Of a stretch of 64,000 bases of DNA, positions 20,887 through 64,000 are shown one piece after another. The number at the start of each line of letters is the position of its first letter. Position 1 is the stretch's first letter. The notes under the pieces were generated by a model. The model saw only the letters and a list, made by a program, of their open reading frames with translations, searched no databases and was not told where the DNA came from. Position numbers and translations under genes: made by a program. The stretch covers positions 8,062 through 72,061 of IMG/VR virus record IMGVR_UViG_3300021335_000011. One strand, written 5' to 3'. The DNA comes from a virus.

Positions 20887-22728
20887 ATGGCTACTACAAT
20901 TAAATCATCAGATTTAGACTTTGAAAATATTAAAGGAAGGTTAAAAACCTATTTTCAGGCTAAACCCGAATATGCTGATTATGATTTTAATGCGGCTGGT
21001 CTAAATAATATCTTAGACGTTCTAGCCTATAATACTCATGTAAATGGACTTACAGCCAACTTTGCATTGAATGAAGCTTTCCTTAATACAGCTCAATTAA
21101 GAAGTTCAGTTGTATCTCATGCTGAGGCTTTAGGTTATGATGTTCGATCGAAGGTTGCATCACGAGCTTTACTTACAATAACATTCAATTTAACTGGTGT
21201 TACAAATAGGCCAACTACTGTTTTAGTTCCTCGCGGATTAACATTTAGTACACAAATTGATAGTATCTCATATACGTTTAGAACGTTAGAAACGTACACA
21301 GCTAGAGATGATGGCACTGGAAATTATACTCTTGAGACTTCTACTGGATCAACTGATATTCCAGTGTTCGAAGGTAAAGAAATGACAAAAACATTTCTTG
21401 TAGGAGAAAAAGAAGAACGTCAGATCTACGTCATACCTGATGAAAATATGGATAAATCTACAGCAATTATTGAGGTATACGATACTGCAAGTTCGTCGAA
21501 CTTTACTAGCTATTCACCAGTAAAAGATGCAGTACGCATTACACCTGATTCTGAATTATTTACTATTCGTGAATCACCTAATGGATATTATGAAGTAAAC
21601 TTCGGTGATGGTATTTCTTTTGGTAAATCACCAGAACCTGGTAATAAAATTGTTATTACTTATCTCTCATCTGGTGGACCAACTGGTAACGATGGCGCAG
21701 TATTTACACCTACTAGCACTGTCACTGTATTAGGGGTTGTGTATCCTACATCTTGTGTAACAGTATCAGTATCAACGGGTGGGGCTGAAAAGCAATCAAT
21801 TGAATCAATTAAAAACTTAGCACCATATGCATATGCTACACAACAACGACTAGTTACATCGCTTGATTACAAAGCTACAATACAAAGTAATTATACAGAT
21901 ATTAAAGATGTGACTGTATGGAGCGGAGATCAAAACGTACCGATTGATTATGGCGCAGCGTATGTCTCTATTAAATATAGTACTGGAACACCACAAAGCA
22001 CAAAGACACAAATACAAAATAGCATTGTAAATAACTTTACAGACAATCTATCAGTGATGTCTATTACTACTAAATTTGTTGAACCTATTGAAGTATTTTT
22101 AGAATTAAATACTGTGTTTAACTTTGATCCTGCATTAACTGGAAGAACTTTGGCTTCTGTGGAACAAGATATATACAATTTCCAAACTAGTTATTTCGCA
22201 AATAATCTAGGAACATTTGATGCTGTTTTCCGTAGATCAAATATGCTCACAGAAATTGATGCATTTAATGCTGCAATCTTGTCATCTCGATCTGATGTAC
22301 GGGCGCAATTAAGATTTGTTCCTACAGTAGGTCAAGTTACATCTCATCAACTTAAATTCCCTATGCGTATTGCAGATCCCGATGATGTTGAAGCTCAAAT
22401 AATTAGTGACACATTCCAGTTTAGAGGAGTAGTTGCTCAGCTACGTAATAAATTAAGTGATACAAAATTGCAAATATATGATCTTTCTGGTAATGTACTT
22501 GCTGATAACGTTGGCCAATATAATGCTGCAACAGGCGTAGTATCTATTATTGGATTTAATCCGCAAAAGCTTTTATTTGGATATAACTATATTAAAGTAT
22601 CTGTTTATCCAGAGAATCAAAGCTTTGTAAAACCGCTACGTAACTATGTTCTTGGCCTTGATCCTAATAATTCTTCTGCATCTGCAATTATTGATAGACA
22701 AACAACGACACTTGAAGTTGATAACTAA
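20887..22728 (+). CDS. gp6: Baseplate wedge subunit gp6
   Basis: LDFENIK..LK, DYDF...GL..ILDVLAYNTH, NEAFL.TAQLRSSVVSHA..LGY, FGDG..GK, Q.RLVT..DY. Confidence 0.9.
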   Translation: MATTIKSSDLDFENIKGRLKTYFQAKPEYADYDFNAAGLNNILDVLAYNTHVNGLTANFALNEAFLNTAQLRSSVVSHAEALGYDVRSKVASRALLTITFNLTGVTNRPTTVLVPRGLTFSTQIDSISYTFRTLETYTARDDGTGNYTLETSTGSTDIPVFEGKEMTKTFLVGEKEERQIYVIPDENMDKSTAIIEVYDTASSSNFTSYSPVKDAVRITPDSELFTIRESPNGYYEVNFGDGISFGKSPEPGNKIVITYLSSGGPTGNDGAVFTPTSTVTVLGVVYPTSCVTVSVSTGGAEKQSIESIKNLAPYAYATQQRLVTSLDYKATIQSNYTDIKDVTVWSGDQNVPIDYGAAYVSIKYSTGTPQSTKTQIQNSIVNNFTDNLSVMSITTKFVEPIEVFLELNTVFNFDPALTGRTLASVEQDIYNFQTSYFANNLGTFDAVFRRSNMLTEIDAFNAAILSSRSDVRAQLRFVPTVGQVTSHQLKFPMRIADPDDVEAQIISDTFQFRGVVAQLRNKLSDTKLQIYDLSGNVLADNVGQYNAATGVVSIIGFNPQKLLFGYNYIKVSVYPENQSFVKPLRNYVLGLDPNNSSASAIIDRQTTTLEVDN

Positions 22729-23813
22729 TGGCATCTAACGAATCCCAAAAACACTACGATAGGATTGGTATCAATTTTAGGCGTGGTCTTATAGATGAAG
22801 TATTACCTGAATATTTCCTCGAAGACTATCCTAATTTAGTTACATTTCTAGAAGGTTACTACGAGTTTTTAGATTCAGATACTAACTTTGATGGGATTAT
22901 ACACGAACTTAATACGATTAAAGATGTTGAAGATGCAAGCCTAGCTCGTCTTGATCAGATGTTTGATACCCTTGCCCTTGGAATATCAGCTGGTCGGTTT
23001 AAGTTTCCTCGTGAAGCTATACGAAACTTTGGTAATTTTTTTAGAGTTAAAGGATCCCAATATTCTGGTGAAGGTTTCTTTAGAGCTTTCTTTGATGCTG
23101 AAGTCGAAATTAAATTTCCTAAAGATGAATTATTTAATGTAGGCGAATCTTTTATTGGTACTGAATACAATAAAAGAATTCAAGACGGTGGCGTGTATCA
23201 AATATTTTCTATTCTTATCAAAGGTCCTTTATCATTTAAAGATTGGGAACAGTTGTGGAGAAAGTATGTCCATCCTACTGGATTCCATCTTGCCAATGAG
23301 GTATCAATTGAAGGCATAGATACCATTAAAATGGTGACTGATGAATCTATACCAGATCCATTTAAAAATATTTTCTTTGTTATTGACAGCGCTGCAGCAA
23401 TTCAAATTCATAGTCCGCCTCAGGCCCAAGGCGAAGTATCTCATCTTAATAATACCAGTTATGGACCTAAAGCTCTTATTCAAAATAAGTTTCTTATCAA
23501 TGATCCGCAGTTTAGAACAAATCCATATCGACTTATTAATATGTTTGCAGATTCTGATGCTGCAGTTGCGGTTGGTAGTAAGCTATACCCAACAATTCAA
23601 GATGTTATGGGTGTTTATAAGAATCTTAAAGAATGGTCAGATTGGGGTGTAACTTATGATAACCTCGATTCGGCTACTGTAGCTATTACGTTTGATAATA
23701 CTTTTGAAACATATGATATGAGAAAGTTCGATACATATAGAAGAATATATATCGAAGAAGATTACGTAGCCCGCGGTTACCACGTAGATAATAAACTACC
23801 GTCAAATGTCTAA
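22728..23813 (+). CDS. Baseplate wedge protein, gp7-like (short)
   Basis: LPEYF..DYP.LV.FL..YYEFL, F..KG......FFR, YQ.FS.LIK, VHP.GF; follows gp6. Confidence 0.65.
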   Translation: MASNESQKHYDRIGINFRRGLIDEVLPEYFLEDYPNLVTFLEGYYEFLDSDTNFDGIIHELNTIKDVEDASLARLDQMFDTLALGISAGRFKFPREAIRNFGNFFRVKGSQYSGEGFFRAFFDAEVEIKFPKDELFNVGESFIGTEYNKRIQDGGVYQIFSILIKGPLSFKDWEQLWRKYVHPTGFHLANEVSIEGIDTIKMVTDESIPDPFKNIFFVIDSAAAIQIHSPPQAQGEVSHLNNTSYGPKALIQNKFLINDPQFRTNPYRLINMFADSDAAVAVGSKLYPTIQDVMGVYKNLKEWSDWGVTYDNLDSATVAITFDNTFETYDMRKFDTYRRIYIEEDYVARGYHVDNKLPSNV

Positions 23814-23830
23814 TTAATTAGATCAACTTA

Positions 23831-23838
23831 TATAAATA
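23831..23838 (+). promoter_or_regulatory. T4-type late promoter
   Basis: TATAAATA upstream of 23864. Confidence 0.75.
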
Positions 23839-23863
23839 AGAATAATCGATTTGTAGGAAAAAA

Positions 23864-32111: not shown

Positions 32112-32317
32112 TGAGAAAGTTTGCAAAGGTAGAAGGATCACAGACTTTAGTAAGAGACCTAAATACAGGTGCTATACTAAATACAGATAAATCTACTCTC
32201 GACAAAGCAAGGGAAGCAAAAGCTTTAAGGCAAAAGAAAAATCAAGAATTTGACGAACTTAAAGGTGAAGTCAAAGAAATGAAAGAAATGTTAACTAAAC
32301 TGATAGAGAAACTATAA
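32111..32317 (+). CDS. Small conserved hypothetical protein
   Basis: KVEG...LVRD..TGAILN plus a C-terminal coiled coil. Confidence 0.75.
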   Translation: MRKFAKVEGSQTLVRDLNTGAILNTDKSTLDKAREAKALRQKKNQEFDELKGEVKEMKEMLTKLIEKL

Positions 32318-32871
32318 TGGCACGTTTTATACAAGTCAGCTTAACTAATCCTATAGGAACATGGGTTCAAAAGACAAATGCACTAAGCGGATTTGTAGGT
32401 GATCTTGATGATCTAAATCCAGCAATTAGACAAATTGTTCCAGCTGTTGACTCCAATGTAGTTACAGTTTTAAACTACCTTGATTCATCTCTTTCACAGA
32501 TGCAAGATAGTGTGAATATGGAATATATGAAACTGGATTCAGGTGATTTCGGTTTAATTCGGGTTGATAGCGCTATTATTGGTTACTTGCAAGTAGATAG
32601 CGGATACTTTGGGTATCTACAAGCTAACAGCGCAGACATCACTTATCTTACTGCAGATAGCGCAACAATTAATGGTGAATTAAGAGTAGAGCGATTAGTT
32701 GTATTTGGCACAGATTCTAACAATTCTGTAGTTTTACCGTATGGTGCTATAGATAGTGCAGAGATCCATGATAGCGCTGTAAGATCTAGACATTTCCAGA
32801 ACTTAGTAACGACTCTTATTCTAGATTCTCAAGGACAAACATTAAAGACAATATTCTCACCAGGTAAATAG
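32317..32871 (+). CDS. Asp-Ser repeat structural protein (probable beta-helix)
   Basis: 10-residue periodic xDS repeats; 11 of 16 Asp residues are followed by Ser. Confidence 0.7.
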   Translation: MARFIQVSLTNPIGTWVQKTNALSGFVGDLDDLNPAIRQIVPAVDSNVVTVLNYLDSSLSQMQDSVNMEYMKLDSGDFGLIRVDSAIIGYLQVDSGYFGYLQANSADITYLTADSATINGELRVERLVVFGTDSNNSVVLPYGAIDSAEIHDSAVRSRHFQNLVTTLILDSQGQTLKTIFSPGK

Positions 32872-32874: not shown

Positions 32875-34131
32875 ATGACATTACGAAGACCTTTATATTA
32901 TACTGATAGCGGCAATATCAAAGAAATGAGTGATATTGAATTAGCTGATGTGCATGCTGAAGCAAAAAGATTCTATTTGAACAATCCACCAGTACAATTA
33001 ACAGTTGTTAATAGCGGAGGTAATCTAGGCGGCATTAACCAACGTCAAGTTATTGCTGGCGCGGCCACGAATAATTCAAGGCGTTTTTCTAGTAATAGTC
33101 CTGGAAATATTAGTGTTCAAACAATGACATATTCTAGGATTCATGAAACTAAAGCTACGCCACCGTTTGGAGCTAATGGAAATTTTGATCTTACTACACT
33201 TAAAGGTAATTTAGGTACTAATTGGCCTGTATATTATAATGATAGCGGTAATTTTGAACCATTTACTGATTCAGATTTTATAGATACGTTTGCAAACCCT
33301 GTTATCCAAGAGCTTGGTGCAGCTAATACTGATCCATTATATGTTATTGGAGAAAGTTCTGGCGTTGTTAGTGGTAGATATACTAAAGTTTCTAATACTC
33401 CAGTATACACAGATCTTATTGCAAATATAGCAGCGTATACTTCAGGTTCTTTACCAGAAACTAAAAAACAAAGTATAACAGTTCAAAACTGGTATTTGTG
33501 GAAATTAAAAAGTAATAGAACAGGTCAAGTGTTTATCGATGTTGCTTATAGAGATTCAGCATATAATAGGCCAGTTTTAGGTACAGGCTTTGAGGTTGAT
33601 TTAGAAAAAAGACCAGGTAGTACTTACATACATTCTATTAGATCTCCAGGTAGTGGATATGTAATCTCAGATAATTTTATTGTTACTGGCAATAAACTAG
33701 GTGGTAAATCACCTGAAAATGATTGGCATTATTATGTTGATGCAATTGATTCTTTTGGTGGTGTAACTAATTTATTACCTCATCCATTTAATAATGGTAT
33801 AGGTAATCGCTATAATCAACCGTTAACTCATACAGATAGTAGTAGTACACCTCTTGGAGTTCATCTTAGATCTATGAAGAAAACTGATTTTGAAACAATG
33901 GTAAATAGTGCTTTGACACATCAAGCAACGACAGAACCAGGCCAAATGATAGAATTTAAATGGAATCAGGGTGCACAAGTTGGAACTACTATCATTGACA
34001 CACGTTATACTAATGCGACATCAAATCAACGAGATGAACAAGATGCCGATAACTATAGGTCACAGAGAGTGCCAACAGGTGGAAACTTACAAGACGTAGA
34101 CACGCATTACTTAGGAGTACGAATATTATGA
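32875..34131 (+). CDS. Putative structural protein
   Basis: 418 aa, repeated P.YY.DSGN motif, in the late operon. Confidence 0.65.
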   Translation: MTLRRPLYYTDSGNIKEMSDIELADVHAEAKRFYLNNPPVQLTVVNSGGNLGGINQRQVIAGAATNNSRRFSSNSPGNISVQTMTYSRIHETKATPPFGANGNFDLTTLKGNLGTNWPVYYNDSGNFEPFTDSDFIDTFANPVIQELGAANTDPLYVIGESSGVVSGRYTKVSNTPVYTDLIANIAAYTSGSLPETKKQSITVQNWYLWKLKSNRTGQVFIDVAYRDSAYNRPVLGTGFEVDLEKRPGSTYIHSIRSPGSGYVISDNFIVTGNKLGGKSPENDWHYYVDAIDSFGGVTNLLPHPFNNGIGNRYNQPLTHTDSSSTPLGVHLRSMKKTDFETMVNSALTHQATTEPGQMIEFKWNQGAQVGTTIIDTRYTNATSNQRDEQDADNYRSQRVPTGGNLQDVDTHYLGVRIL

Positions 34132-34628
34132 GTATTCAAATTACAGAAGCTAACTTAGTTAGCGCAGTATTTATGGATGATGAAGGCAGTTTAATACAAG
34201 CAGTTGTTTTAGGTGAAGACGGCTCAAATAATTCATTAATTATTAGAACAGATCCTGAAGATTATTTGTTTCAACAATTAATGTTGGTATGTTCAGTGGA
34301 TCAAATTAATGAATGGTCAGATGAATTTTATGCAATACAAAGACAGGACATTGAAAATTATCAGCTAAGATTAATAGAAGCTGGTGATGTAAGTTATATG
34401 CGGGCAACTGGTGCCGACGACAATGCTAGACTTATGTCAGAAGTTGCAACTATGCTATTTCAATATGACACTATTAATACCGAACATATTGAAAAGTTAT
34501 TTAATCTTAAATTAGAAATGTTTGAATTAGCTGCAGTTACCAATGCAACAGATGAACAGCGAGAAAGCCTTCGTGAAGCTGAAACTCCTATGGCTGCTAT
34601 TCATATACTACATGGTATAATGCAGTAA
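34128..34628 (+). CDS. Hypothetical acidic protein
   Basis: AGGAG RBS, ATGA overlap; LF.LKL..FE motif. Confidence 0.65.
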   Translation: MSIQITEANLVSAVFMDDEGSLIQAVVLGEDGSNNSLIIRTDPEDYLFQQLMLVCSVDQINEWSDEFYAIQRQDIENYQLRLIEAGDVSYMRATGADDNARLMSEVATMLFQYDTINTEHIEKLFNLKLEMFELAAVTNATDEQRESLREAETPMAAIHILHGIMQ

Positions 34629-37339: not shown

Positions 37340-38177
37340 TTTTTGTTACCATACTACGATTTATCAATGACATCCGAGCATGATCATCAAACTCTTTTAG
37401 ATGATAATGTCGAATAAACTTTTCATAATTTTTTATCAACACGTAATTAGAGTGTGACTCTATACAATTATAATTCTTTTCTATATATGCTTTAGTTTGA
37501 TTCATTCTTTTTACATGATGTGGTATTTCATCGAGTATAGAAACTAAGTTGCGAGTCATACCACCTATGCATACTTGTGCGGGTCTCAAGTTTTGTATTT
37601 CATTTATAATAGGCTCATGACCAATGGCCCATCCGAATCGAGCTCCAGGTAATGCAATAGATTTACTTAACGTTTTTAATATAAGTAATTTACTTGAACC
37701 TAGTTTTCTCTCGGGCATATCACAAAAATCGCCATAGGCTTCATCAACGATAACTAATTTGTGTTTATCTAATAATTTATCGTATGATTCTAATCTTGTA
37801 CCATTAGTGCCGTGCGGGTTACTTACATAACAGACATCATCACCATGCGGTATGTTATATAATTTTTGTATCATATGGATTGGTTTCCATGAATTATGAT
37901 GTGATGTCATAGATAATCCGCGTTCTTTGATGATTAAACCAATACGCATTATTAATTCACTTAATCCTAAACCAATTGCAATTTGACGAGTATTTACTGA
38001 ATGATAGTCTGCTAATATATTATAACATCTACTAGTATCAACATAGCTATTTAAGTCAAATTCCCATATAGGGTTTGCTGCATCAAAACATACATTTGTT
38101 GATAAATCAATCTTATAATCGTGATGATATTGATCTTCATCCCAAGCTGGTCTTAAGCCCAGATTTTTTGTATCCAT
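37299..38177 (-). CDS. PLP-dependent class I/II aminotransferase or decarboxylase (HisC/CobD-like)
   Basis: DLSTN, SNPHG.NG, VDEAYGDF, KTLSK...LPGARFG. Confidence 0.8.
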   Translation of the reverse strand: MDTKNLGLRPAWDEDQYHHDYKIDLSTNVCFDAANPIWEFDLNSYVDTSRCYNILADYHSVNTRQIAIGLGLSELIMRIGLIIKERGLSMTSHHNSWKPIHMIQKLYNIPHGDDVCYVSNPHGTNGTRLESYDKLLDKHKLVIVDEAYGDFCDMPERKLGSSKLLILKTLSKSIALPGARFGWAIGHEPIINEIQNLRPAQVCIGGMTRNLVSILDEIPHHVKRMNQTKAYIEKNYNCIESHSNYVLIKNYEKFIRHYHLKEFDDHARMSLINRSMVTKSALDKEHAFFSRT

Positions 38178-43531: not shown

Positions 43532-43783
43532 ATGGCTCAACAAACCTTCGTATCTAGAATTACGGTCAACGAAGACGTAGGACAAACTATTGTCAAAAAG
43601 GTAATAGTTGGCTCTCCGATTCGTCGTGTCACAGGTACATCAGCTCAAGAATTATGTGATCTTATCGACGTAGTTTGTACCGGAAAAGAAGATGGGGATA
43701 TAGTTGAATTTGATCTTGTAACAGAAAAGTTTTATATAAGAAGAGACCCTCGATTACTGATAATTAGAGGGGGTACATTTTAA
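43532..43783 (+). CDS. Small hypothetical structural protein
   Basis: AAGGA RBS; L.DL.DV...DG and terminal GGTF typical of fibre-associated ORFs. Confidence 0.6.
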   Translation: MAQQTFVSRITVNEDVGQTIVKKVIVGSPIRRVTGTSAQELCDLIDVVCTGKEDGDIVEFDLVTEKFYIRRDPRLLIIRGGTF

Positions 43784-48900: not shown

Positions 48901-51900
48901 TTATCAAATGGTGGAGCAGCTTATAGCGATGGTGTAACAAATAACGGAGGTTCGGGTACAGTAGAATTTACAGTACCTATGAATGCTCCAACATCCCTAG
49001 TTTATCAGTGTACAGTTCACGGTGGAATGGTTGGCGATATTGTTATTAATGCTGCAGCTGGTCTTGATTCTGCACAAATTATTAATTTAATTGATAGCGC
49101 CTATGTTCAGCTTCGCGACTCTTCTAGTAGTGGTGGCGGCGGTGGTGGTGGAGGCGTTGATTCGGCCACAACAATTGCACTTATTGATTCTGCTTATGTT
49201 AAAGCAAGAGTCGATCACAATGCTAACGAAGTATTAATTTTTGGTGATGACCAACAAGTCGCTGGTACACTTGCACAATCTAACACTTCAGTAGTTTCAT
49301 TCTTTAATAGTATTTATCCTGATGGTCAATTTATAGCATCTTACAATTATGCTAGTGGTGGCTTGCCTATTGGTCAATGGTTGTATGCTTATTATTGGGT
49401 CAATTCTGGTCATGGTTATTTCCAAGTAGTAAGTAAAACAGATCTTGGAAATGGCACATACAGATATTACTGTGAAAATTCAGCAGGAAATCCAGCACCT
49501 AACTGGGCCGGCGGTTGGACAAACTACGTTGTTATAGCAAGTACAGTAGGTGCTAAAGACAAAGCTTTACGAATTAGTCACCAAACAAACGGTGATTACC
49601 TTTTCTTTGACGGTCGTAGAAACTTCTATTTCTCACAGAATGATAGCGATCAAAGAAACTTTAAGATCGAACTTACTGGAACCTCAGCCCTTGAAATGGT
49701 TGGCGGTAAACATATACATTACGGAAATAGTTATGATAGTGATGGTGATTTTCCAAATGCTTCAGTGTTTAAAGGTATGGTTGCACATGCTAAGAATAAT
49801 GATGCTTTGTATTATGCGAATGATTCTGGTGTATGGACAACAATTGCTGGAACAGGTGCACAAGCATTCCAAGATTCTGCGGTTGTTGTTGGGTTAATCG
49901 ATTCGGATTATATTCTCAATAAGAAGTTTGTACCTGGTGATGCTGAAAGACGATGGAATATTACATCAGCGGCACCTGCTGGAGCACAGGCTGTCGCTGT
50001 TGGAGATTATTGGCTTGATCGTGATACCGAAGTTTTATATAAACTTACTACTGATACAAATTGGACAACTACTTTACCTGCAGGGACCTTTACTGCAGAA
50101 GCAGGATTAACATCAAATAATTGGTTTGCAAATGGAGTTGGTGGTGATCCAGCCACAATTAATCAGGGTCCTCCTGGTCCAGTTGGTACATTTAACAGAA
50201 CTTTCTTGATGGGTACTAGCCCATATAATTCTGGTGGTCGATACACATTTACACAACCAGTTAATTTTGGATATTTTCAGATTGGTAATCTAGCCTCTGG
50301 ACATATTTACTCTGTCGGATATACCGATGGCTCGTACATGGTTTCAAACACTGGTATCAATGGTTCTAAAACCGCAACGCCAAGTTCATATACTTGGTAT
50401 GACGCAAACGGTGTTTCTTTAGGTCAAACAGTGGCGGCTGGTAGTGGTTTTAGAAACTATAGTCATCCAAACGGCACATTAGCAACATATATCGTTATTG
50501 GTAGAAATAACTATGGTACTCGTGGCTATAGTTGCTATATGTTCTTTTCTGGAGCAAGTAGTTGGCAGCGGATAGGTGAAATTTATGATTCAGGTGATAT
50601 TAAAAATGTTATCGATTCTGCGTATGTTACTGGTATTTCTGGCAGTGGCGGTAGCGGCAGTGGATTAGATTCAGCTGCAGTCACCACTCTTATCGATTCA
50701 GCATATGTACAAGCGAGACAAACAGCTGGTGGTGGAGGCACAGACTCTGCAGCAGTACAAACTCTAATTAATGCTGCTATTGATTCTGGTGCTGTACCAT
50801 TCACCCAAAATTACTTTCATTTTACATCAGATTCTGGACATAAAATATATAGTGGATTCGATGATGATAGTGATAGTTTAACCTACACAACTGGAGCATT
50901 AACTGTTTACCTTAACGGTATTTTGCTTGTAGATTCAGTAGACTATACTGCAACTAATGGAACATCTATTGTATTGACTGATTCTGCAGAATTGGGAGAT
51001 ATTCTTACAGTACAAACATTTGCTGGCAATAGCCTTGGACTAGACTCAGCAAAAGCAATCAACTTAATTGACAGTGCATATATCGCTGCAAGAACAACAG
51101 CAGGTACAGACTCTGCTGCCATTATCAACCTTATTGATAGTGCGTATGTTCAAGCTCGGCAAGCAGCTGCTTCTAGCGGTGTTGATTCTGCTGTTGTTAT
51201 AAGTCTTATAGACAGTGCGTATGTTAATCAAAGGGTTTCCTTTACAGGACCATCATCATCTAGAACTTCTCTTGGATTAACCGGTGTAACAACCGGATCA
51301 AATAATGCAACTTGGACATTTAACACTGATGCATCTGCCGAGAACTTTAAGTTATTAATTGACGGCGTGTATTTAGCAAGCAGCGCCACAGGTAGCGTAT
51401 TAGGATTTAAAGATGCTGGTGGAAAATACTTCTCTGTTGGAGACAATTACAATAGCCATAATTTTACCAGATCAGTTGTTGCTGTTAGAACCAATAATGC
51501 AGTAACTCTTAGTTGGTCTGGTGGACTTGCATATAGTTGGGCTAACTTTACAGATTATAGCGGTGGATTTAGTGCTGCATTCACAGCAAATGGTGGCACA
51601 TTACCTTTAGTTTCTGTGTATTCACCAAAAATAACAAATGGCCAGCCTGGATCATTTACTACTCCATATGTTGTTGGCGATGCAACAACTGGTAATGGAG
51701 CTGGTGTATTTGGTACAAACACAACAAACTATGGTGCACTAGTAACAGTTGCCGCCTCAGCAACATATTTGTCATTAACAAATGTCATTGATTCTGCTTA
51801 TGTAGAAGCTCGCGTAAATGCTTTGGATTCAGCAGAAGCAATTAACCTTATTGATTCCGCTTATGTAAGAGCTAGACAAAACTTTGCGTATAGCGCACTT

Positions 51901-54330
51901 ACTAGTACACCAACAGATCTTAGTGACTTTGATAATGATGTAGGTTATATTACCGATGCATCATTTGATGACTTTGAATCAAGAGAATTTATTGGTAATC
52001 AAGGTGGGTTAACAGATAAAGTATATTCATTTATTGTCCCGGTTGGAGTTACAACTATTTCTGCTGTCGCCATTGCTGGTGGTGGTGGAGGTGGTGAGGC
52101 AGCATCTGGCACAGATGGTGTAGGTGGCGGTGGTGGTCTATCGTACGATACTTCTCTTGCTGTTACTCCAGGTGAAACACTTACAATTACAGTTGGCCAT
52201 AGCGGCAATGGCGGTATGGCACCTAGCGATCCACCTAATTCTATCGGTACCGGTGACACGGCTAATAACACGACTATTAAAAGAGGTTCTACTGTATTAT
52301 TGCAAGCCAATGGTGGTACAGGTGGTAGTGGAGGTACTAATGGTACCGGTGGATCTGGTGGTACAACTTTATCATACGATGGTGGTGGTAATGGTGGAGT
52401 TCGTGGAGCAGGTCAATATACTGGTAACGGTGGATCTTCAGGATCTGCGAGTCTCTTAGGAACATCAAGTACAGATTATTTGTATGGTGAAGGTGGTGCA
52501 GGCTACAGCCATGGCCAAAAGGGTGCAGTAAGAATTATTTGGGGCACTGGTAGATCTTATCCAGATACAAATATTGTACAAACGTTCTTGAACGTATATA
52601 GTAGTGGAATTGATTCAGCTGCTGTTATAAGTCTTATTGACTCAAATTATGTAAGACAAAGAGTTACTAAATCTGATCTCGATATGGAAGGGAATAAAGT
52701 TCTCTTTGCAAATGTTTATGATTCAACCGGAGCTTTGCCAAGTGCAACCACTTATCATGGCATGTTTGCTCATGTTCATGCCACTGGTGCAGGATATTTT
52801 GCTCACGCTGGTAACTGGACAAGATTAGCTAATCAATCGGAAGTAAGTTCATACGATTCAACAAATACTATCGGCATAATAGATTCTGCATATGTTCAAG
52901 CTAGACAAACATCTGGTGGTGGTGGAACAGTCGATAGTGCAGATATTATTGCGATTGTTGATAGTGCATATGTTCAAGCTAGACAAACATCTGGTGGCGG
53001 AGGCGGAGGCGGAGGCCTAGATTCTGCTCTCGTATCACAATTAATTGATTCAGATTATATTGCTACAAAGGTAGACTTTACTCGTGGAGAATTTACTACA
53101 CAAAGATCGCAGTATACAGCGACAGCATCGCAAACAGTATTTAATCATAGCTCAATTGATGCTACTCATCTTGACGTCTATCTTAATGGTATCTTGCAAG
53201 TGGTCAATGATGATTACACTGCCAATACATCCGCCGTTACCTTCACAACAGGTGTCGACAGCGGATACAGCGTCTCAATTATTGAAAGGCGTGGACGTGT
53301 CGCTACCCAACGAGGACTAGTTGAAAGTAAATATTACTTTACTACACCGACACCAATCACATCAATTACCGGTGTTGATGATAATGGTGTTACACTTGAT
53401 TACTCAAATGGAAATTTAGATGTCTACTTGAATGGTATTCTTCTAAAAGATTCAGATGATTATTCTACCAATGCTGGTACTACAGTAACTCTTATATCTG
53501 CCACAGATTCAAATGATCTTGTTACTCTTATCAATCGTAAGGGTGTAGTCGTAACACCAAATGTAGAGAATTATGAATTTACTGCTACCGCTAATCAAAC
53601 GGTGTTTAGCGGTTCAGACATTAATGGTAATACTTTATCATATGCACCTGGTGCAATTCAAGTTTATATGAATGGTATTCTGCTTCGAGCTGTTGATTAC
53701 ACGTCAACAACTGGTTCTAGTATTATACTTGCTACAGCAGCTGCAGCTAATGATGAAGTTGTTGTATCAGCATTTAGTAATCCTGGTCAGAATATGGAGC
53801 TGTATAAGTTTACCGCAGATTCTGGTCAAACCATTTTTAGCGGTAATGATATTGTAGGTGCTTCACTTGCATATCAGCCTGGTAACATTCAGGTATTCAT
53901 GAATGGCTTGTTATTAAATGATTCAGATGATTACAACGCCTTAAACGGTATGTCAGTTGTTCTAACATCTGGCGCCGATGCAAGCGATGAAATTAAAGTT
54001 GCATCTTTTGTATCGAATACAAATGCAATTAGAACAAATGCATGGACTGCGCCAAGCGGAACACCGGTTGCAGCATCTGCTGGTGATAAGTTATTCATTG
54101 ATGTTTCATCTTCTGCAAAGACTGTGACACTTCCATCATCTGCAAGTATGGGTGATGAGATTCGAATCATTGATGTGACAGGAAATGCAGCAACAAACAA
54201 TATTACAGTCGCACGAAATGGACATAATATTCAGGGTTCATCAAGCGATCTAACTATTAACATTAACAGAGCTGGTATCGGATTGGTTTATTACAATTCC
54301 GCTCAAGGTTGGGTACTGATAGAGAACTAA
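45988..54330 (+). CDS. Giant (2780 aa) tail fibre/adhesin with IDSAYV repeats
   Basis: KRSS..G.VP...L..GELAIN..DGK, EG.NLYYT repeats, IDSAYV..R repeats, cupredoxin-like HPF...YQC..H module, Gly-rich domain, YLNGILL repeats. Confidence 0.8.
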   Translation: MTTPKVLLKRSSVVGRVPQSGDLDYGELAINFADGKIYYKDNSNTIKAFIDSARTQSLIDAVNQAAENQLDSAEVIDLIDSAYVQLRQSYNALTLGGDSGDYYRNYHNLYNKPLILDIVDIQNIIDNYVNQTFVDNLNVDADTLDGLNSTQFLRSDSDTRLTADLIIDSNLTVGGDATFNNNVTLSGNLYGPATMYIDPAAHDSDTGRVIIRGDLQVDGTQTIVNSTTVSINDKNIVLADSATNAAEADGAGITVNGANANITYNAAEDEWQFNKKTQTPNLEVTNVIDATTVNTTNITATTINTTNITGNYTNFDSDFDSALGTKTTTDVAEGTNLYYTTTRADSDFDVRITTKTTNNLTEGDNLYYTTARADSDARSALSANKVSGFGNLTYDSAAGKFSYTGISTQEIRNRFAAQGDLSYDSATGVFSIDVENVYTKTNFDSDLGDASTTDLPEGSNLYYTKTRVDSDFDARFAGKSTDNLAEGNTNLYYTTTRHDSDTRVLVDSAYVQARVDSSFIATIADLTFLDSGDALQLIDSSHVQLKAKGLDYNVLSNKPALIDSTLVTQLIDSTYIRVTIDSAHIENVINNSTTVFVNNVDSAYVQLKAKNLDYNVLSNKPNLIDSGLVEGLVDSAYVQLHAKGLNYNVLSNKPNVLDSSDIVSIIVSETLDSDLIINLVDSAYIQLRDRFQDSAGVKAVIDSAYVRARVKTNQDLRTTDSVTFAGINVLANSITFGESDATMTYLPDSDMIQFNKPVKGDNVEFTGATIQSDSSTFNGLYVYDNRLGQKDWVARFSRRQNEYSSPAVVLISTDAEERSDIAFEIRGNANSNLLGPEFDDKFHDDSNTKFAIYGSGHTLIGYSNLPGGVGALYPYSMLSGDNNVKLQVNYGISVDSNLVFHEGNYKTYIDSAYIEARRPAETIFSVGGDGSNYVFSGDGFPSNANDPTLYLTRGKTYKFTNISSSHPFEIRLSNGGAAYSDGVTNNGGSGTVEFTVPMNAPTSLVYQCTVHGGMVGDIVINAAAGLDSAQIINLIDSAYVQLRDSSSSGGGGGGGGVDSATTIALIDSAYVKARVDHNANEVLIFGDDQQVAGTLAQSNTSVVSFFNSIYPDGQFIASYNYASGGLPIGQWLYAYYWVNSGHGYFQVVSKTDLGNGTYRYYCENSAGNPAPNWAGGWTNYVVIASTVGAKDKALRISHQTNGDYLFFDGRRNFYFSQNDSDQRNFKIELTGTSALEMVGGKHIHYGNSYDSDGDFPNASVFKGMVAHAKNNDALYYANDSGVWTTIAGTGAQAFQDSAVVVGLIDSDYILNKKFVPGDAERRWNITSAAPAGAQAVAVGDYWLDRDTEVLYKLTTDTNWTTTLPAGTFTAEAGLTSNNWFANGVGGDPATINQGPPGPVGTFNRTFLMGTSPYNSGGRYTFTQPVNFGYFQIGNLASGHIYSVGYTDGSYMVSNTGINGSKTATPSSYTWYDANGVSLGQTVAAGSGFRNYSHPNGTLATYIVIGRNNYGTRGYSCYMFFSGASSWQRIGEIYDSGDIKNVIDSAYVTGISGSGGSGSGLDSAAVTTLIDSAYVQARQTAGGGGTDSAAVQTLINAAIDSGAVPFTQNYFHFTSDSGHKIYSGFDDDSDSLTYTTGALTVYLNGILLVDSVDYTATNGTSIVLTDSAELGDILTVQTFAGNSLGLDSAKAINLIDSAYIAARTTAGTDSAAIINLIDSAYVQARQAAASSGVDSAVVISLIDSAYVNQRVSFTGPSSSRTSLGLTGVTTGSNNATWTFNTDASAENFKLLIDGVYLASSATGSVLGFKDAGGKYFSVGDNYNSHNFTRSVVAVRTNNAVTLSWSGGLAYSWANFTDYSGGFSAAFTANGGTLPLVSVYSPKITNGQPGSFTTPYVVGDATTGNGAGVFGTNTTNYGALVTVAASATYLSLTNVIDSAYVEARVNALDSAEAINLIDSAYVRARQNFAYSALTSTPTDLSDFDNDVGYITDASFDDFESREFIGNQGGLTDKVYSFIVPVGVTTISAVAIAGGGGGGEAASGTDGVGGGGGLSYDTSLAVTPGETLTITVGHSGNGGMAPSDPPNSIGTGDTANNTTIKRGSTVLLQANGGTGGSGGTNGTGGSGGTTLSYDGGGNGGVRGAGQYTGNGGSSGSASLLGTSSTDYLYGEGGAGYSHGQKGAVRIIWGTGRSYPDTNIVQTFLNVYSSGIDSAAVISLIDSNYVRQRVTKSDLDMEGNKVLFANVYDSTGALPSATTYHGMFAHVHATGAGYFAHAGNWTRLANQSEVSSYDSTNTIGIIDSAYVQARQTSGGGGTVDSADIIAIVDSAYVQARQTSGGGGGGGGLDSALVSQLIDSDYIATKVDFTRGEFTTQRSQYTATASQTVFNHSSIDATHLDVYLNGILQVVNDDYTANTSAVTFTTGVDSGYSVSIIERRGRVATQRGLVESKYYFTTPTPITSITGVDDNGVTLDYSNGNLDVYLNGILLKDSDDYSTNAGTTVTLISATDSNDLVTLINRKGVVVTPNVENYEFTATANQTVFSGSDINGNTLSYAPGAIQVYMNGILLRAVDYTSTTGSSIILATAAAANDEVVVSAFSNPGQNMELYKFTADSGQTIFSGNDIVGASLAYQPGNIQVFMNGLLLNDSDDYNALNGMSVVLTSGADASDEIKVASFVSNTNAIRTNAWTAPSGTPVAASAGDKLFIDVSSSAKTVTLPSSASMGDEIRIIDVTGNAATNNITVARNGHNIQGSSSDLTININRAGIGLVYYNSAQGWVLIEN
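51100..51138 (+). repeat. 39-bp exact repeat shared with 56929-56967
   Basis: GCAGGTACAGACTCTGCTGCCATTATCAACCTTATTGAT occurs in two different fibre genes. Confidence 0.85.
52887..52997 (+). repeat. 33-bp direct repeat within the giant fibre gene
   Basis: TGCATATGTTCAAGCTAGACAAACATCTGGTGG at 52887 and 52965. Confidence 0.85.
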
Positions 54331-54331
54331 T

Positions 54332-56781: not shown

Positions 56782-59700
56782 ATGGCACGTAAGACATTTA
56801 CATCCAGAAATAGAGCGTTCGCTGCGCTAGTTCGCGGCGTCGATAATGTTATTGTCAACAACGCGGTTGACTCTGCTGGAGCTGTAGAGGATATTGTAGA
56901 TTCGGCATACATTGCTGCTCGATCAACTGCAGGTACAGACTCTGCTGCCATTATCAACCTTATTGATTCTGCATATGTTTCTGCCCGCGCAGGCGGGGGC
57001 GGGGGTGGAGGTACAATTACCGAAGTTACCGATAGTTCTACACGAGAAGCAATATCATCTCCATTAGAAGGTGATGTAGCAGTACAATTCCAAATAGGAC
57101 CAGGTAGAAATACTGGTGTTACTCATAACTTTGGTGGTGCTACAATTGTATCATGGTCTGTTGGAGCAAACTACTCAGGTGCAGAATTAACACTTAATAA
57201 CTCAACATTTGCTGCAGCTGCCCAACCAGGTGATGTTATTGTAGTTTCGTCTGGTACAGTTCAAAGATATAATAGTTATCATACGGTTAATGCTTGGCAA
57301 ACGCAACAAACCGGTAATCTTATTGTAGCTGTTAAATCTATCACTGATGCTAACAACCTTAAGGTTATGCTTGCGGTACCAGTATATTGGACTAGTCAAA
57401 ATACTACTGGTTATATGAATACCAATCTAAAAGCGTATTTTGATAATGCTGCAAATCCAAGAGGCGAAATACCATCAAATGCTACAGTAGCTTATTCAAA
57501 CGATCCTAACGTTAATGGTACAACAGGAAGTCAAAAACTTACTGGTGGCACTGCAACGTTATATAGAATGTTTGAAAAGACTATTAAGTCAACTTGGGAT
57601 ACTTCTGGTATTACAAGTTCGCCAGTCAACACATCAGACAATTACCAAGGCGAAGTTACAGCATTAACAAATTCTAATCCTCTTATTTGGTTTAGAAATG
57701 ATTCGGCTTGGAAACCTTATGTTAATGATCAAATTACTGGTACAGTTGATTCTGCATATACAAGAAATCTAATTGATTCAGCTTATATAAGTAGCCTAAA
57801 ATTTATTCAAAATACAACTATTACTGAAGTTTCAGATAGCGATCAAAGAGTAGCAATTTCATCTCCTATAGAAGGCGATGTTGCTATACAATTTAGAGGC
57901 GGAACTGGAACTAGTACAGGTATTTCTTATGACTTTAGCGGTGGCCAACTTTGGTCTAAAACAGTTTATCTAGCTAGCGGAACTAATAGTCTTTCATATA
58001 CATCAGCAAATGATGTTGGTAATGGTAGGTTTAAATGGTCGCATTCAACTTTTGATGATCATGTTCAAAAAGGTGATGTGATTGTAGTTGAAAATGCTAC
58101 GGTAACTACAAGTCCAGGTGTTAACCCATGGGCCAGTAAATCTGGCACATTTATGTTTGCTTGTCACACACCTAAAGTTGGATCAACTGCACCTTGGTAT
58201 AATATAGTAGCTTATTTTTATGATGTTCCAAACGGTAGTTCTGGATACCTGAATACTGATTTAGGTAGTTATTTTAGTGGTACTGATGGAGTAGCTACTA
58301 CAACAAATCCTAGAGGATCTATACCTGCTGCAGCAGTAATGGTGCACTCATATGGTAATGTTAATAATAGTTCTGCTACTACAACTCTTGTTGGTGGTGT
58401 TGCAACTCTGTATCGTATGTTTGATGGCACAACATATCAAGATGCTTATGATACATCTGGCGGTGGAGGTGGAACCGCATACACAGATCAAACAGGTACA
58501 GTAAATGCAATCGGTGGTCTAAAACCATTAGTATATCACTATAATGATGCTGCATTTAAACCATATGTACAAAATAATATTTTAGGAACTGTTGATTCTG
58601 CATATATTAATGCAAGAGTTGATCCATTCGATTCTTCGCATGTCTTAGGACTTGTTGATAGTGCATATATCCAATTAAGAGATCGATTCCAAGATTCATC
58701 TGGTATAGTGGCTATTGTTGATAGCTCGTATATTCAATCAAGACAAAATTCAATAGTTGATTCTGCTACTACCCTTACACTTATTAGTTCATTACTTGAT
58801 AGCGCTGCTCCATCAAGAGCATTCACATATACCTTTACAGCATCCGCTGGTCAAACAACATTTACTGGAGCAGATACCAATAATAATGTTTTAGGATATT
58901 CAGCTGGTAATATTATTACGTTCTTAAATGGTATTTTACTTATTGATTCTGATGATTATGTAGCATCTAGTGGAACATCTATTGTACTTAATTCTGCTGC
59001 ATCATTAAATGACGTAGTTAATGTTGTTAAATTCTCAGCTGAGGGTATAAATCTATCTCATCAACAATTTAAATATACTGTTTCATCTCCTACAACCACA
59101 TTTAGCGGTAATGACGATAACAACAATAGTTTATCGTATGAAGCTGGTGAATTGCAAGTATTCTTAAATGGTATCCTGCTTATTGATTCACAAGACTATA
59201 CAGCGACAAATGGAGCAAGTGTTGTATTAACTGCCGCAACTGATTCATCTGCTGTTCTTGCAATTAGTAAATACAGCGGATCAGGCTTAAGACAAACTGC
59301 AACTAGAGCTAAGCATTTTGTTTATACTTTACCAGTTCCTACAACTACAATAACTGGAGCTGATGATAATAATTCGACACTTTCCTATATCCAAGATCAA
59401 ATTCAAGTATTTCAAAATGGAATATTACTTATTGATTCTGCTGATTATACTGCAACCGATGGTACATCAATTGTATTAGGAACTGCATCAGATTCGGCTG
59501 ACACGATTGTAGTTACTGCACTTAGAGGTTCACTAACTGGTGGACTTGACTCTGCGAATGTTTTAGCACTTGCTGGTGGATTAGACTCTGCAAAAGTTAC
59601 TCAATTAATAGATTCTGCATATGTGGGCGCAATAATCGATTCTGCATATGTGACCGCGCGCTCAGGCGGTGGTGGAGGTGGAGGTGGCACTGACTCTGCT

Positions 59701-59871
59701 ACAGTTATTGCACTTAGCGGTCAATTAAAAGGCGGCATGTTCAGAATTAACCCTCAATCTCTTAGTATAAATACCACTATAGACAGTGCTGAGAATGCGC
59801 ATGTTGCTGGACCAATATCATTTGATAGCGGTGTAGTGCTAACAATCAACGGTAATTTGGTGATAAGCTAA
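56782..59871 (+). CDS. Asp-Ser-rich fibre protein with an internal tandem duplication
   Basis: IDSAYV repeats, two ITEV.DS..R.AISSP.EGDVA.QF modules, three F.NGILLIDS.DY modules. Confidence 0.75.
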   Translation: MARKTFTSRNRAFAALVRGVDNVIVNNAVDSAGAVEDIVDSAYIAARSTAGTDSAAIINLIDSAYVSARAGGGGGGGTITEVTDSSTREAISSPLEGDVAVQFQIGPGRNTGVTHNFGGATIVSWSVGANYSGAELTLNNSTFAAAAQPGDVIVVSSGTVQRYNSYHTVNAWQTQQTGNLIVAVKSITDANNLKVMLAVPVYWTSQNTTGYMNTNLKAYFDNAANPRGEIPSNATVAYSNDPNVNGTTGSQKLTGGTATLYRMFEKTIKSTWDTSGITSSPVNTSDNYQGEVTALTNSNPLIWFRNDSAWKPYVNDQITGTVDSAYTRNLIDSAYISSLKFIQNTTITEVSDSDQRVAISSPIEGDVAIQFRGGTGTSTGISYDFSGGQLWSKTVYLASGTNSLSYTSANDVGNGRFKWSHSTFDDHVQKGDVIVVENATVTTSPGVNPWASKSGTFMFACHTPKVGSTAPWYNIVAYFYDVPNGSSGYLNTDLGSYFSGTDGVATTTNPRGSIPAAAVMVHSYGNVNNSSATTTLVGGVATLYRMFDGTTYQDAYDTSGGGGGTAYTDQTGTVNAIGGLKPLVYHYNDAAFKPYVQNNILGTVDSAYINARVDPFDSSHVLGLVDSAYIQLRDRFQDSSGIVAIVDSSYIQSRQNSIVDSATTLTLISSLLDSAAPSRAFTYTFTASAGQTTFTGADTNNNVLGYSAGNIITFLNGILLIDSDDYVASSGTSIVLNSAASLNDVVNVVKFSAEGINLSHQQFKYTVSSPTTTFSGNDDNNNSLSYEAGELQVFLNGILLIDSQDYTATNGASVVLTAATDSSAVLAISKYSGSGLRQTATRAKHFVYTLPVPTTTITGADDNNSTLSYIQDQIQVFQNGILLIDSADYTATDGTSIVLGTASDSADTIVVTALRGSLTGGLDSANVLALAGGLDSAKVTQLIDSAYVGAIIDSAYVTARSGGGGGGGGTDSATVIALSGQLKGGMFRINPQSLSINTTIDSAENAHVAGPISFDSGVVLTINGNLVIS

Positions 59872-61661: not shown

Positions 61662-61670
61662 AGGATAAAA

Positions 61671-62915: not shown

Positions 62916-62925
62916 GAAGACAGCA

Positions 62926-63309
62926 ATGGCAAGCGAACTCAGAGTAACAACATTATCAAATGCAACTGGTGACGGGCCAGCAGCACTGACAAAGCAAGTT
63001 GCGGCGAAACATTGGACCAGTTGGAACCAAAGTGGCACATTAACAGTTGCTGGTAGCTTTAATCAAAGCAGTCTGACCGATGAACAATCTGCATATACAA
63101 CAGTTGCTTTTACTAGCAACATGAGCAATGACGATTATGCATATAGTGGATGTTGTCAAGGATCTAACCATGGCCAAACAATTTTTTGTGAATATTTGAC
63201 ATCTAATAAATTAACTAGTGCGACTCAAGTTCGAACGATGCATAACACAGACAATTCCGCTCAAAACCCTGATGACGTGATGATGCACACACACGGAGAC
63301 CTTGCATGA
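62926..63309 (+). CDS. Small fibre-associated protein
   Basis: MASELRV..L, AK.W, SFN.SSLTD, F..NM..DDY, terminal GDLA. Confidence 0.65.
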   Translation: MASELRVTTLSNATGDGPAALTKQVAAKHWTSWNQSGTLTVAGSFNQSSLTDEQSAYTTVAFTSNMSNDDYAYSGCCQGSNHGQTIFCEYLTSNKLTSATQVRTMHNTDNSAQNPDDVMMHTHGDLA

Positions 63310-64000
63310 GTAGAAATCTTTTATTAGCTACATTAGTTCAAGATTCTTCTGGTGATATTGCAGCAGATCGTTTTGATAAGCTTGTTGATAATACAATTGA
63401 ACCAGAAACATTAAACATGGCGGTTGATGTTGATTCTGCTGGGCATGGTGCTGACTGGAAATGGTCATGGAAGCCTACTACTTTACCATACGCTCGAGAA
63501 AATATTACAATGCTGGCACAAAATGAAGTACCTGTTTATAAAAGTGGTACATATTCTCTTATTAATTTTACTGCCTTTCGAATGCGAGATTCTGCAACTC
63601 AAACACATAAAATGTATTTAAAATGGATTGATGAACCTGGATTAAGTAATCTTGTAGATTGGGTTACGTACGACAGTGGAAATTTTACATTTGAAGGAGT
63701 AACTGGAGATTCAGCAACTCGTGCACAACGATTGAGATGGACTGTTCCATCATCTTATACTATACCAACTTTAAATACGAGTACTACTAATTATAATATA
63801 GGAGCTGTTTCTGGAGCGTATGTACATACAGGTACTCAGGTGGGCCAAAACGCGGCAATTCAATTACGTAGAGGAAATACTTATAATTTTGTTTTAGATG
63901 CTACTACAGTTGGCCATCCATTTTATTTATCAACTGATGATGGTTCAGGGTTTATTACTAATACATATGTTAATGAATATTTACACGGTGTTACAAACTC
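63306..64000 (+). CDS. Virion structural protein, truncated by the window end
   Basis: ATGA overlap; open frame MSRNLLLATLVQDSSGD...L.RG.TYNF...GHPFYLST to the end. Confidence 0.75.
   Translation, partial: MSRNLLLATLVQDSSGDIAADRFDKLVDNTIEPETLNMAVDVDSAGHGADWKWSWKPTTLPYARENITMLAQNEVPVYKSGTYSLINFTAFRMRDSATQTHKMYLKWIDEPGLSNLVDWVTYDSGNFTFEGVTGDSATRAQRLRWTVPSSYTIPTLNTSTTNYNIGAVSGAYVHTGTQVGQNAAIQLRRGNTYNFVLDATTVGHPFYLSTDDGSGFITNTYVNEYLHGVTN

Follow-up and report, generated by a model that had tools for sequence, protein, structure and literature searches.

Asp-Ser pairs in the outer baseplate and fibre proteins of an uncultured marine T4-like phage, and the enzyme island among their genes

Asp-Ser pairs in the baseplate and fibre module

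The stretch of DNA analysed here, called the window throughout, is 64 kb of a 72-kb viral contig (IMG/VR record IMGVR_UViG_3300021335_000011) and belongs to an uncultured marine T4-like phage. It carries a T4-like baseplate and fibre module, with gp25, gp6, gp7-like, gp9/10-like and gp8 proteins, a giant DUF4815 protein and several fibre proteins; among the fibre genes lies an island of enzyme genes on the opposite strand (Table 1). The subject of this report is the dipeptide Asp-Ser (DS), which occurs in the outer baseplate and fibre proteins at about 3-6 times the chance level, the expected number for each protein being calculated from its own residue composition and all counts being given as observed/expected.

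Nine peripheral virion proteins were pooled: the 2780-amino acid (aa) fibre, the 184-aa protein, the gp9/10-like protein and gp8, all pointed out as DS-rich in an earlier sequence-only reading of this DNA, and five further DS-rich proteins that it had not named (those of 716, 1029, 418, 414 and 231 aa in Table 1). Together they contain 177/51.1 DS pairs (z 17.6), by far the most enriched of the dipeptides; SA and ID, which come next, belong to the same longer motif. The most depleted dipeptide in these proteins is DT (22/55.5, z -4.5). DS stands at 26/25.6 in the remaining structural proteins, at 23/40.1 in the rest of the window and at 10/11.6, not enriched, in the 13 island enzymes taken together. 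When residues were shuffled, the observed number of pairs was attained in 0-1 of 5000 shuffles for five of the proteins (1 of 5000 for the gp9/10-like protein), in none of 1000 for the 2780-aa fibre and in 21-136 of 5000 for the three weakest; for the DUF4815 protein, which is not enriched, it was attained in 183 of 1000. Ser and Asp codon usage within DS is that of the background, with all six Ser codons present, and the enrichment is therefore not a DNA-level repeat effect.

The computed counts reproduce all of those given in the sequence-only reading, including the absence or scarcity of the pair in gp32 (0/1.6), in the gp5-C-like protein (18295-19824; 0/2.4) and in gp6. Its proposals that DS exceeds what composition predicts, that it is selected at the protein level and that it recurs in unrelated folds are likewise borne out, at least four unrelated scaffolds being involved. 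DS is a real motif, selected at the protein level and specific to the peripheral virion proteins of this clade. A converse avoidance of DS in non-virion proteins was also considered; it is weak, the cassette enzymes not being depleted and outgroup baseplates also falling below expectation, at about 0.5-0.6x.

The residues around the pair are far from random. Position -1 is I, V, L or F at 101 of the 177 sites; position +2 is A at 82, D at 30 and G at 17; and Y is enriched at +3, V or I at +4, A at +6 and L, R or I at +7. Hydrophobic residues, whose background frequency is 0.30, occupy -1 in 111 sites and +4 in 97, with 70 sites having both, an arrangement typical of the hydrophobic staple that flanks an N-cap. 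By a simple classification the 177 sites comprise 62 that are repeat-like, 9 that follow NLYYTxxRx, 6 within NGILL-x-DS-x-DY and 100 others, so that about one third of them fall in a 9-10-residue repeat, [ILV]-D-S-A-Y-V-Q-A-[RL]-[IV].

This repeat is most developed in the fibres, where the unit LDSAxVxxLIDSAYVQARQ recurs. The 2780-aa fibre is made up of such doublets together with NLYYT modules and NGILL-x-DS-x-DY modules, and 21 of its 81 DS gaps show a spacing of 9 residues; in the 184-aa protein the period is 10 residues, with the repeat h-[DN]-S-[AG]-x-h-x-x-h-x (h, hydrophobic) over residues ~73-118. Across the fibre modules of the window, NLYYTxxRA is followed by DS in 9 of 11 copies, and NGILL-x-DS-x-DY carries the pair in 6 of 8. 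Searched against 1.84 billion representative proteins, a stretch of 226 aa from the fibre hit 309 clusters (50% identity), mostly proteins of 1000-2800 aa with many matched stretches each. In the best 150 of these 309 the consensus is the same at every position and the commonest DS gap is again 9 residues (1429 times); their DS and DT counts are 6554/1932.6 and 947/1906.9, an enrichment that is partly circular because the hits were chosen with a DS-rich query. For the DSAYVQAR-type repeat, no Pfam model, PDB relative or relevant literature text was found. Nor was a solved structure of the DS modules found: among fibre residues only the C-terminal 80 of the 2780-aa protein were matched, residues 2699-2778 resembling a tailspike domain (PDB 7rfv, E 2.7e-7), and the 716-aa protein gave no match to solved structures.

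Some further features of these fibres may be recorded. Runs of 5-9 Gly part the DS repeat doublets in the 2780-aa and 1029-aa proteins, and the former also holds a Gly_rich_2 domain (PF21722, residues 2012-2179). The 716-aa protein has 78 Asp residues and 17 DS, with no DT at all where 9.5 would be expected.

For gp8, an AlphaFold2 model built from 70 orthologues (predicted local distance difference test, pLDDT, 87.4) matches T4 gp8 (1n7z_A; Foldseek E 1.3e-11, probability 1.0) in both fold and family. Five of its nine DS sites lie in coil, three at a strand end just before a turn and one within a strand. The model of the 184-aa protein is unreliable (pLDDT 54.9) and gives a hint only, setting DS at two-residue corners between short strands and also at the start of one helix.

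The enzyme island

The island consists of 13 minus-strand open reading frames (ORFs) between 34608 and 43031, with a G+C content of 0.31 as against 0.34-0.40 in the neighbouring 4-kb blocks. The sequence-only reading described an enzyme cassette bracketed by DS-rich genes, and this holds. Its four glycosyltransferase (GT)-like enzymes are present as four ORFs, on weak evidence; of its three AspH-like hydroxylases two are supported, while the third is only weakly similar. A radical S-adenosylmethionine (SAM)/SPASM gene, a gene for a HisC/CobD-like pyridoxal phosphate (PLP) enzyme and a methyltransferase-fold gene may be added to its list. None of the 13 proteins has a clear membrane segment, the single 19-residue window with hydropathy above 1.6 being in the PLP enzyme. 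The island is best described as a hypervariable set of predicted soluble, cytoplasmic enzymes.

Three of the four GT-like ORFs are paralogues of a putative GT-A type. Both Asp residues of their DxD motif (here DLD) are invariant in 14 aligned sequences. The family has no Pfam or NCBIfam model, no Pfam domain or annotation was found in 120 homologues, and its best PDB glycosyltransferase match is non-significant (E 0.37); leads in the Atlas are GT8, carried by 13% of members, and PF03407, carried by 22%. The radical SAM/SPASM protein exceeds both Pfam cut-offs (37.0 vs 29.5 and 54.2 vs 21.5 bits) and reads CNRTCSFC at its CxxxCxxC motif, though no NCBIfam model attains its cut-off. Genes of Campylobacter phages and S-SCSM2R that carry a BtrN or SPASM annotation share 27-30% identity with it; the BtrN-type link consists of 27% identity to phage genes so annotated by their depositors, and nothing else supports a BtrN identity. 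The PLP enzyme is shorter than the models of its family.

Of the cupin-like ORFs, 41445-41972 matches PF05118 below the cut-off (E 0.003; 17.8 bits vs 22.6), and 29 of the 30 named clusters closest to it in the Atlas have the PF05118 family set (score 0.97), which is found in 80-89% of members in the top three. ORF 41951-42412 is its paralogue (E 6e-4), whereas 40723-41448 aligns to these two with an hhalign probability of 1%. HxD...H-like residues, picked out by eye and unaligned to a model, read HYD...KHTAIN, PHID...KHGVMN and KHVD...HEAHA.

In the region scanned for promoters, the best sigma-70-like match is found immediately upstream of the first island gene (Table 1); such matches are no more numerous in the region than in shuffles, and this one is only a pointer to position. 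Two plus-strand late-promoter-like motifs, TATAAATA, lie at 43099-43141, upstream of the assembly-factor-like gene, and are again no commoner than in shuffles. A minus-strand copy of TATAAATA near the island was dropped as a late promoter, as it is the mirror of the plus-strand one in an overlapping palindrome.

Roughly 30 kb from the cassette, the window holds a second sugar-chemistry gene, for an FkbM-family methyltransferase (123-905, plus strand), with a weak RfbT-like match below cut-off; the RfbT-like family is linked to sugar or O-antigen methylation.

Table 1. Features of the baseplate, fibre and island region of the window, with DS counts as observed/expected where available
Feature	Position	Strand	Evidence or remark	DS
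gp6	20887-22728			2/3.4
gp7-like baseplate wedge protein, 361 aa	22728..23813	+	PF23786 E 1.5e-14	4/1.7
gp9/10-like baseplate-fibre connector, 609 aa	23864..25693	+	PF07880 E 5e-7	13/4.4
gp8 baseplate wedge protein, 450 aa	25704..27056	+	phrog_438 E 2e-81	9/2.5
DUF4815 giant structural protein, 1681 aa	27066..32111	+	PF16075 E 7e-55	11/8.2
184-aa fibre-like protein	32317..32871	+	11/16 Asp within DS	11/1.7
418-aa structural protein	32875..34131	+	adjoins 184-aa gene in relatives too	6/2.0
166-aa protein	34128..34628	+	left island border in relatives; homologues at same position in L018, L019, L022, L042	
Two GT-A-like paralogues, 202 and 256 aa	34608..35977	-	paralogy by blastp; third copy 38153-38767	
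Methyltransferase-fold protein, 206 aa	35974..36594	-	spermidine synthases E 0.004, profile vs PDB	
Radical SAM/SPASM protein, 256 aa	36569..37339	-	PF04055 37.0 bits, PF13186 54.2 bits	
HisC/CobD-like PLP enzyme, 292 aa	37299..38177	-	PF00155 E 4e-13; TIGR01141 E 1e-19, below cut-off	
Third GT-A-like paralogue, 204 aa	38153-38767	-	phrog_1962 'glycosyltransferase' E 5e-10	
phrog_28018 protein, 212 aa	within 38153..39365	-	weak GT2 match, PF00535 E 0.056	
Two proteins, 264 and 203 aa	39340..40723	-	no Pfam, PHROG or NCBIfam family found	
Three small cupin-like ORFs	40723..42412	-	41445-41972 and 41951-42412 AspH-like; 40723-41448 weakly similar	
First island gene, 215 aa	42384..43031	-	no family found	
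Sigma-70-like promoter match	43068..43096	-	TGTACA, 17 bases, TATAAT, TG before second hexamer; 10/12 positions	
Tail-fibre assembly factor-like protein, 117 aa	43169..43522	+	phrog_3304 E 1e-16	
716-aa fibre protein	43783..45933	+	NLYYTxxRx-DS modules; DT 0/9.5	17/6.4
2780-aa fibre	45988..54330	+		82/22.6
Protein with three LamG-like domains, 813 aa	54332..56773	+	PF13385 E 2e-52; not enriched	4/5.3
1029-aa fibre protein	56782..59871	+		28/7.8
FG-GAP repeat protein, 596 aa	59871..61661	+	PF14312 E 1.6e-32; not enriched	5/6.0
414-aa distal structural ORF	61671-62915	+		6/2.5
127-aa distal ORF	62926-63309	+	phrog_11355 'tail fiber'	0/0.9
231-aa distal ORF	63306-63998	+	cut by window end	5/1.2

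Motif and island across the clade

Searches of a phage collection revealed no close cultured phage. The nearest by gp6 is Phage C48C1 (OQ984149), at 40% identity, for whose identity or host a literature search found no relevant paper, followed by Methylophilales phage Melnitz and Pelagibacter phage HTVC008M, each at ~30%. Neither the cassette region (megablast) nor the 184-aa protein and a DS-repeat fragment (tblastn) found a match in that collection. Relatives were sampled from IMG/VR as the best 80 of at least 575 gp8 relatives, with gp8 identities of 41-98%, on contigs that are fragments, 15-58% complete; G001-G009 below are such contigs, and L-numbers (e.g. L096, L104) are loci on them.

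Among orthologues of gp8, DS is enriched 2.95x when pooled at gp8 identities of at least 58%, all 26 distinct proteins reaching at least twice the expected number, and 2.37x at 41-47%, where 35 of 46 do so. For the same two ranges of gp8 identity the gp9/10-like proteins give 3.83x (388/101.3) and 1.88x and the gp7-like proteins 1.73x and 2.57x, the distant orthologues being the richer; those of the DUF4815 protein stay near expectation (1.40x and 1.09x). Fibres follow suit: four in G001, whose gp8 is 62% identical, have 49/14.4, 27/8.0, 29/6.4 and 16/3.1, and one in G009 (45%) has 30/11.3. DS enrichment is clade-wide. Of 72 gp8 sequences, reaching as low as 41% identity, 35-67 have DS in each of six columns, and where the Ser is replaced it is mostly by A or G, rarely by T. 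In Phage C48C1 most structural proteins are at DS expectation, with mild enrichment in its 1568-aa gp10-like protein (31/17.7). Outgroup copies of gp6 stand nearer to expectation (2/4.2, 4/3.9, 2/3.1) than those of the clade, to which we return below.

Gene order, too, is kept down to 45% gp8 identity: the DUF4815 gene is followed by a small DS-rich fibre protein, by homologues of the genes at 32875 and 34128 and then by the opposite-strand island, after which come the assembly-factor-like gene and the giant DS-rich fibres. The assembly-factor-like gene is the right border of the island, and its homologues flank the islands of G001, G007 and G009. Within the island a core recurs, the GT-like gene with the methyltransferase-fold gene beside it, in the window, G005, G001, G004, G009 and L090; the two also adjoin in L022, and a radical SAM gene usually accompanies them. 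In G007 both are found in a single 401-aa ORF (L104:1-1205, minus strand), which points to a possible functional coupling of the two domains; the G007 island also has a 26%-identical relative of ORF 39340.

The other genes vary. In the loci in hand the PLP enzyme is seen in close relatives and G005, while the AspH-like genes, several others and the BtrN-like radical SAM gene are seen in close relatives only. The G001 island, among equally DS-rich genes, is without the radical SAM gene of the window and has instead a different, twitch-type radical SAM gene and a carbamoyltransferase gene. This last (L096:13504-14985, plus strand) is of the NodU/CmcH type (PF16861 E 6e-65).

The sequence-only reading had asked whether enrichment and cassette co-occur across T4-like genomes, and the answer is divided. 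All strongly DS-rich contigs that reach far enough carry the island, and C48C1 has neither an island at this place nor DS enrichment. On the other hand, the complete, DS-poor genome of C48C1 has a GT-like gene elsewhere (E 1.8e-8); in G007 a large island containing the fused ORF goes with proteins that, as far as the contig reaches, show no enrichment (gp8 4/3.1, gp9/10-like 2/1.9, gp7-like 5/3.2, a 492-aa protein 6/3.9), the large fibres of G007 lying beyond the contig end; and the 31 kb of G008 hold neither a GT-like gene nor an island between the fibres, which are mildly DS-rich. Across the compared contigs DS is not tracked by any enzyme of the island, and co-occurrence at the level of the clade is a single evolutionary event. 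The island appears to track DS only loosely, and a lack of linkage is what we infer.

Two other genes of the window deserve mention. A beta-ketoacyl synthase (3603-4763, plus strand; PF00109 E 1.7e-30, PF02801 E 9e-23) is unusual in a T4-like phage; among bacteria it matches FabF-like genes of assorted taxa at 31-34% identity only, and host assignment by this gene was dropped on that ground. Among the baseplate genes, a 176-aa ORF (11711-12241, minus strand) has a TnsA-like endonuclease N-terminal domain (PF08722 E 1.8e-17).

Possible roles of DS: turn element or modification site

The most economical reading, which we favour tentatively and at slightly less than even confidence, is that DS is a structural turn or cap element of which this clade makes heavy use. 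The Asp, following a hydrophobic residue, would cap the backbone in an Asx-turn or helix N-cap and be followed by a small Ser, the two together ending a strand or starting a short helix. In the fibres the pair would be one fixed position among about 9 that are conserved in the repeat, a repeat family that would amplify DS and probably builds trimeric shafts; in gp8 it would serve at strand ends and in loops. The context of DS is far longer than three residues and therefore counts for a structural element over a sequon, and the replacement of Ser by A or G in gp8 fits a need for a small residue. A comparable architecture is that of nonad alpha/beta coiled coils, which have a nine-residue period and occur in trimeric fibres including phage tail fibres and spikes; their beta-layer, a short non-helical element with the consensus [aliphatic]-A-T-K-[polar]-[DE], caps the next helix (PMC4786415). 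The window fibre and its 150 homologues share the 9-residue period, but their consensus, compared by sequence only, differs from that of the beta-layer.

Several observations weigh against a purely structural role. None of the nine gp8 sites starts a helix in the model, by which a helix N-cap as sole explanation is ruled out for gp8, though it stays plausible for the fibre repeats. Leaving out the 62 repeat-like sites, there are still 115 DS against the 51.1 expected for all sites. In several gp8 loops most orthologues have DS, but moved by 1-3 columns, to which alignment uncertainty may contribute. The gp8 of C48C1, of the same family and fold, has none of the nine DS sites of the window, and its fibre modules read NLYFTxARA-KT/RA/RG and NGVLLHQGIDY, without DS; the structural proteins of Melnitz and of cyanophage S-CAM1 are at DS expectation. 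Since the same gp8 fold and fibre modules occur in C48C1 without DS, the pair is not required by these folds, and it appears as a clade-specific overlay that does not depend on fold. The pair falls short of expectation in the inner baseplate proteins of the window (2/12.1, summed over 12262-20886), although outgroup baseplates are low as well, as noted above, and it does so in gp6 throughout the clade (0.26x, 20/76.8, at gp8 identities of at least 58%; 0.48x, 52/108, at 41-47%). A structural role also leaves unexplained why Thr is avoided, with DT halved, and why the island, whose core is conserved, has persisted in this gene neighbourhood, flanked by DS-rich fibre genes as far out as 45% gp8 identity.

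The island itself may be unrelated to DS. In marine T4-like phages, islands of this kind are usually assumed to serve DNA or host-glycan chemistry, and phage DNA hypermodification, or an alteration of the nucleotide sugars or surface glycans of the host, is a role for the cassette that we consider evenly poised. It would complement a structural explanation of DS, leaving the enrichment itself unexplained. The island resembles the hypervariable islands of marine T4-like phages, which hold 2-oxoglutarate (2OG) oxygenases, glycosyltransferases and a carbamoyltransferase, in its low G+C and its variable small enzymes; it is on the opposite strand behind a sigma-70-like promoter match, and its GT-like, radical SAM and PLP genes, with the carbamoyltransferase of G001, fit sugar or nucleotide chemistry. 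S-CAM1, which is DS-poor, carries similar annotations, namely a carbamoyltransferase and 2OG oxygenases, and DNA glycosylation by viral glycosyltransferases is established (Pyle 2024, cited in PMC12619734). The island of the window differs from those islands in its fixed place between DS-rich fibre genes and in its recurring GT-like and methyltransferase-fold pair. Membrane-bound glycan-assembly proteins are absent from it, and a thymidylate-synthase-family hydroxymethylase was looked for and not seen in five partial genomes, whose completeness of 35-58% means that one could have been missed.

The opposite proposal, to which the sequence-only reading inclined, is that DS or h-D-S is a recognition site for covalent modification by the soluble island enzymes, for example O-glycosylation of Ser; we think this unlikely, though it accounts for much that a structural role does not. 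The GT-A-like and methyltransferase-fold pair would add and trim a group in the cytoplasm, either ahead of fibre assembly or in its course, with the variable genes of the island diversifying that group. In favour of this are the presence of DS on at least four unrelated scaffolds that are without it in outgroups (gp8 loops and the NLYYT, NGILL and DSAYVQAR modules), the rarity of Thr in place of Ser and the depletion of DT, the persistence of DS in gp8 loops while its exact position shifts, and the depletion of DS in gp6 and the inner baseplate proteins. In the window, G005, G001 and G009 the island is flanked by DS-rich fibre genes, with the GT-like gene adjoining the methyltransferase-fold gene there and fused to it in G007; its 13 proteins have no clear membrane segment; and C48C1 is without both island at this place and enrichment. 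Against this, the GT activity is itself a reading of a family that matches no Pfam or NCBIfam model and nothing in the PDB at significance, and that family also occurs in DS-poor C48C1 and in G007, while G008 is mildly DS-rich with neither island nor GT-like gene in its 31 kb. The AspH-like and BtrN-like genes are confined to close relatives and the PLP enzyme to these and G005; about a third of the sites are a fixed position of a longer repeat; the co-occurrence counts as one event; the best promoter match, being sigma-70-like, suits early rather than late expression; and the LamG, FG-GAP and DUF4815 proteins, which belong to the same virion periphery, show no enrichment.

Known systems offer partial parallels. 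Phage virion proteins assemble in the cytoplasm. Staphylococcal SdgA and SdgB are soluble glycosyltransferases that act on Ser beside Asp in Ser-Asp repeats, their substrates being long unbroken SD runs in cell-wall adhesins, unlike the isolated DS pairs in hydrophobic context of the window. The sequence-only reading had looked to the Bacteroidota O-glycosylation sequon, D-(S/T)-(A/I/L/V/M/T) (PMC8550257), in a group of bacteria where motif enrichment in one protein class serves as a genomic signature of the modification (PMC12871550). The two are alike in having Asp directly before the hydroxyl residue, and Ala is the commonest next residue here (82/177). As a model, however, this system is a misfit. 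The window avoids Thr, and its +2 residue falls within the Bacteroidota set in only 96 of 177 sites, the other 81 having D, G, S, N, F, Q or K; in B. fragilis, glycosylation was abolished when Gly was engineered into the position following the acceptor (PMC12871550). The Bacteroidota targets are moreover non-cytoplasmic, the glycan being assembled on undecaprenyl phosphate and, once flipped to the periplasm, transferred there (PMC12871550), whereas the virion proteins of the window are cytoplasm-assembled and the island enzymes soluble, without clear membrane segments. The precedent in phages is virion glycosylation by phage-encoded glycosyltransferases in mycobacteriophages (Freeman 2023, cited in PMC12619734). 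There the glycans are at the C-termini of capsid and tail-tube subunits, and no dipeptide motif across baseplate and fibre proteins is described; the DS phage is known here from sequence alone. DS as a sequon for the island enzymes has no direct support, and sequence analysis cannot tell whether it is one.

That DS marks non-covalent surface sites, for binding Ca2+, Mg2+ or host glycans or for contacts in the baseplate-fibre network, is improbable. It would suit the restriction of the enrichment to peripheral proteins, the location of the gp8 sites in loops and at strand ends, with their presence conserved and their exact position not, and the lack of these sites in the same folds elsewhere; but no known metal-binding pattern was recognised among the sites, and hydrophobic -1 and +4 residues with Ala at +2 look like packing rather than ligand binding.

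Whatever its role, DS enrichment provides a simple genomic marker for the clade and a concrete set of sites for mass spectrometry, and the DSAYVQAR-type repeat is a large fibre family, of at least 309 clusters, of which no description was found in the literature. If DS is structural only, it is a clade-specific way of building baseplate turns, which would help in annotating and modelling marine phage fibres. The fullest form of the modification proposal is that the clade modifies its own baseplate periphery and fibres at an h-D-S sequon by means of the GT-A-like and methyltransferase-fold core, with lineage-specific additions; we hold it to be doubtful. If it is true, those additions (radical SAM, PLP, AspH-like or carbamoyltransferase enzymes) would vary the surface coat from lineage to lineage, and this would be the first sequon-directed system for modifying virion proteins in a phage of Gram-negative bacteria. 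Decoration of the fibres would then bear on host range, protease resistance and the persistence of virions in the sea, and the variable island would be a new layer of phage surface diversity.

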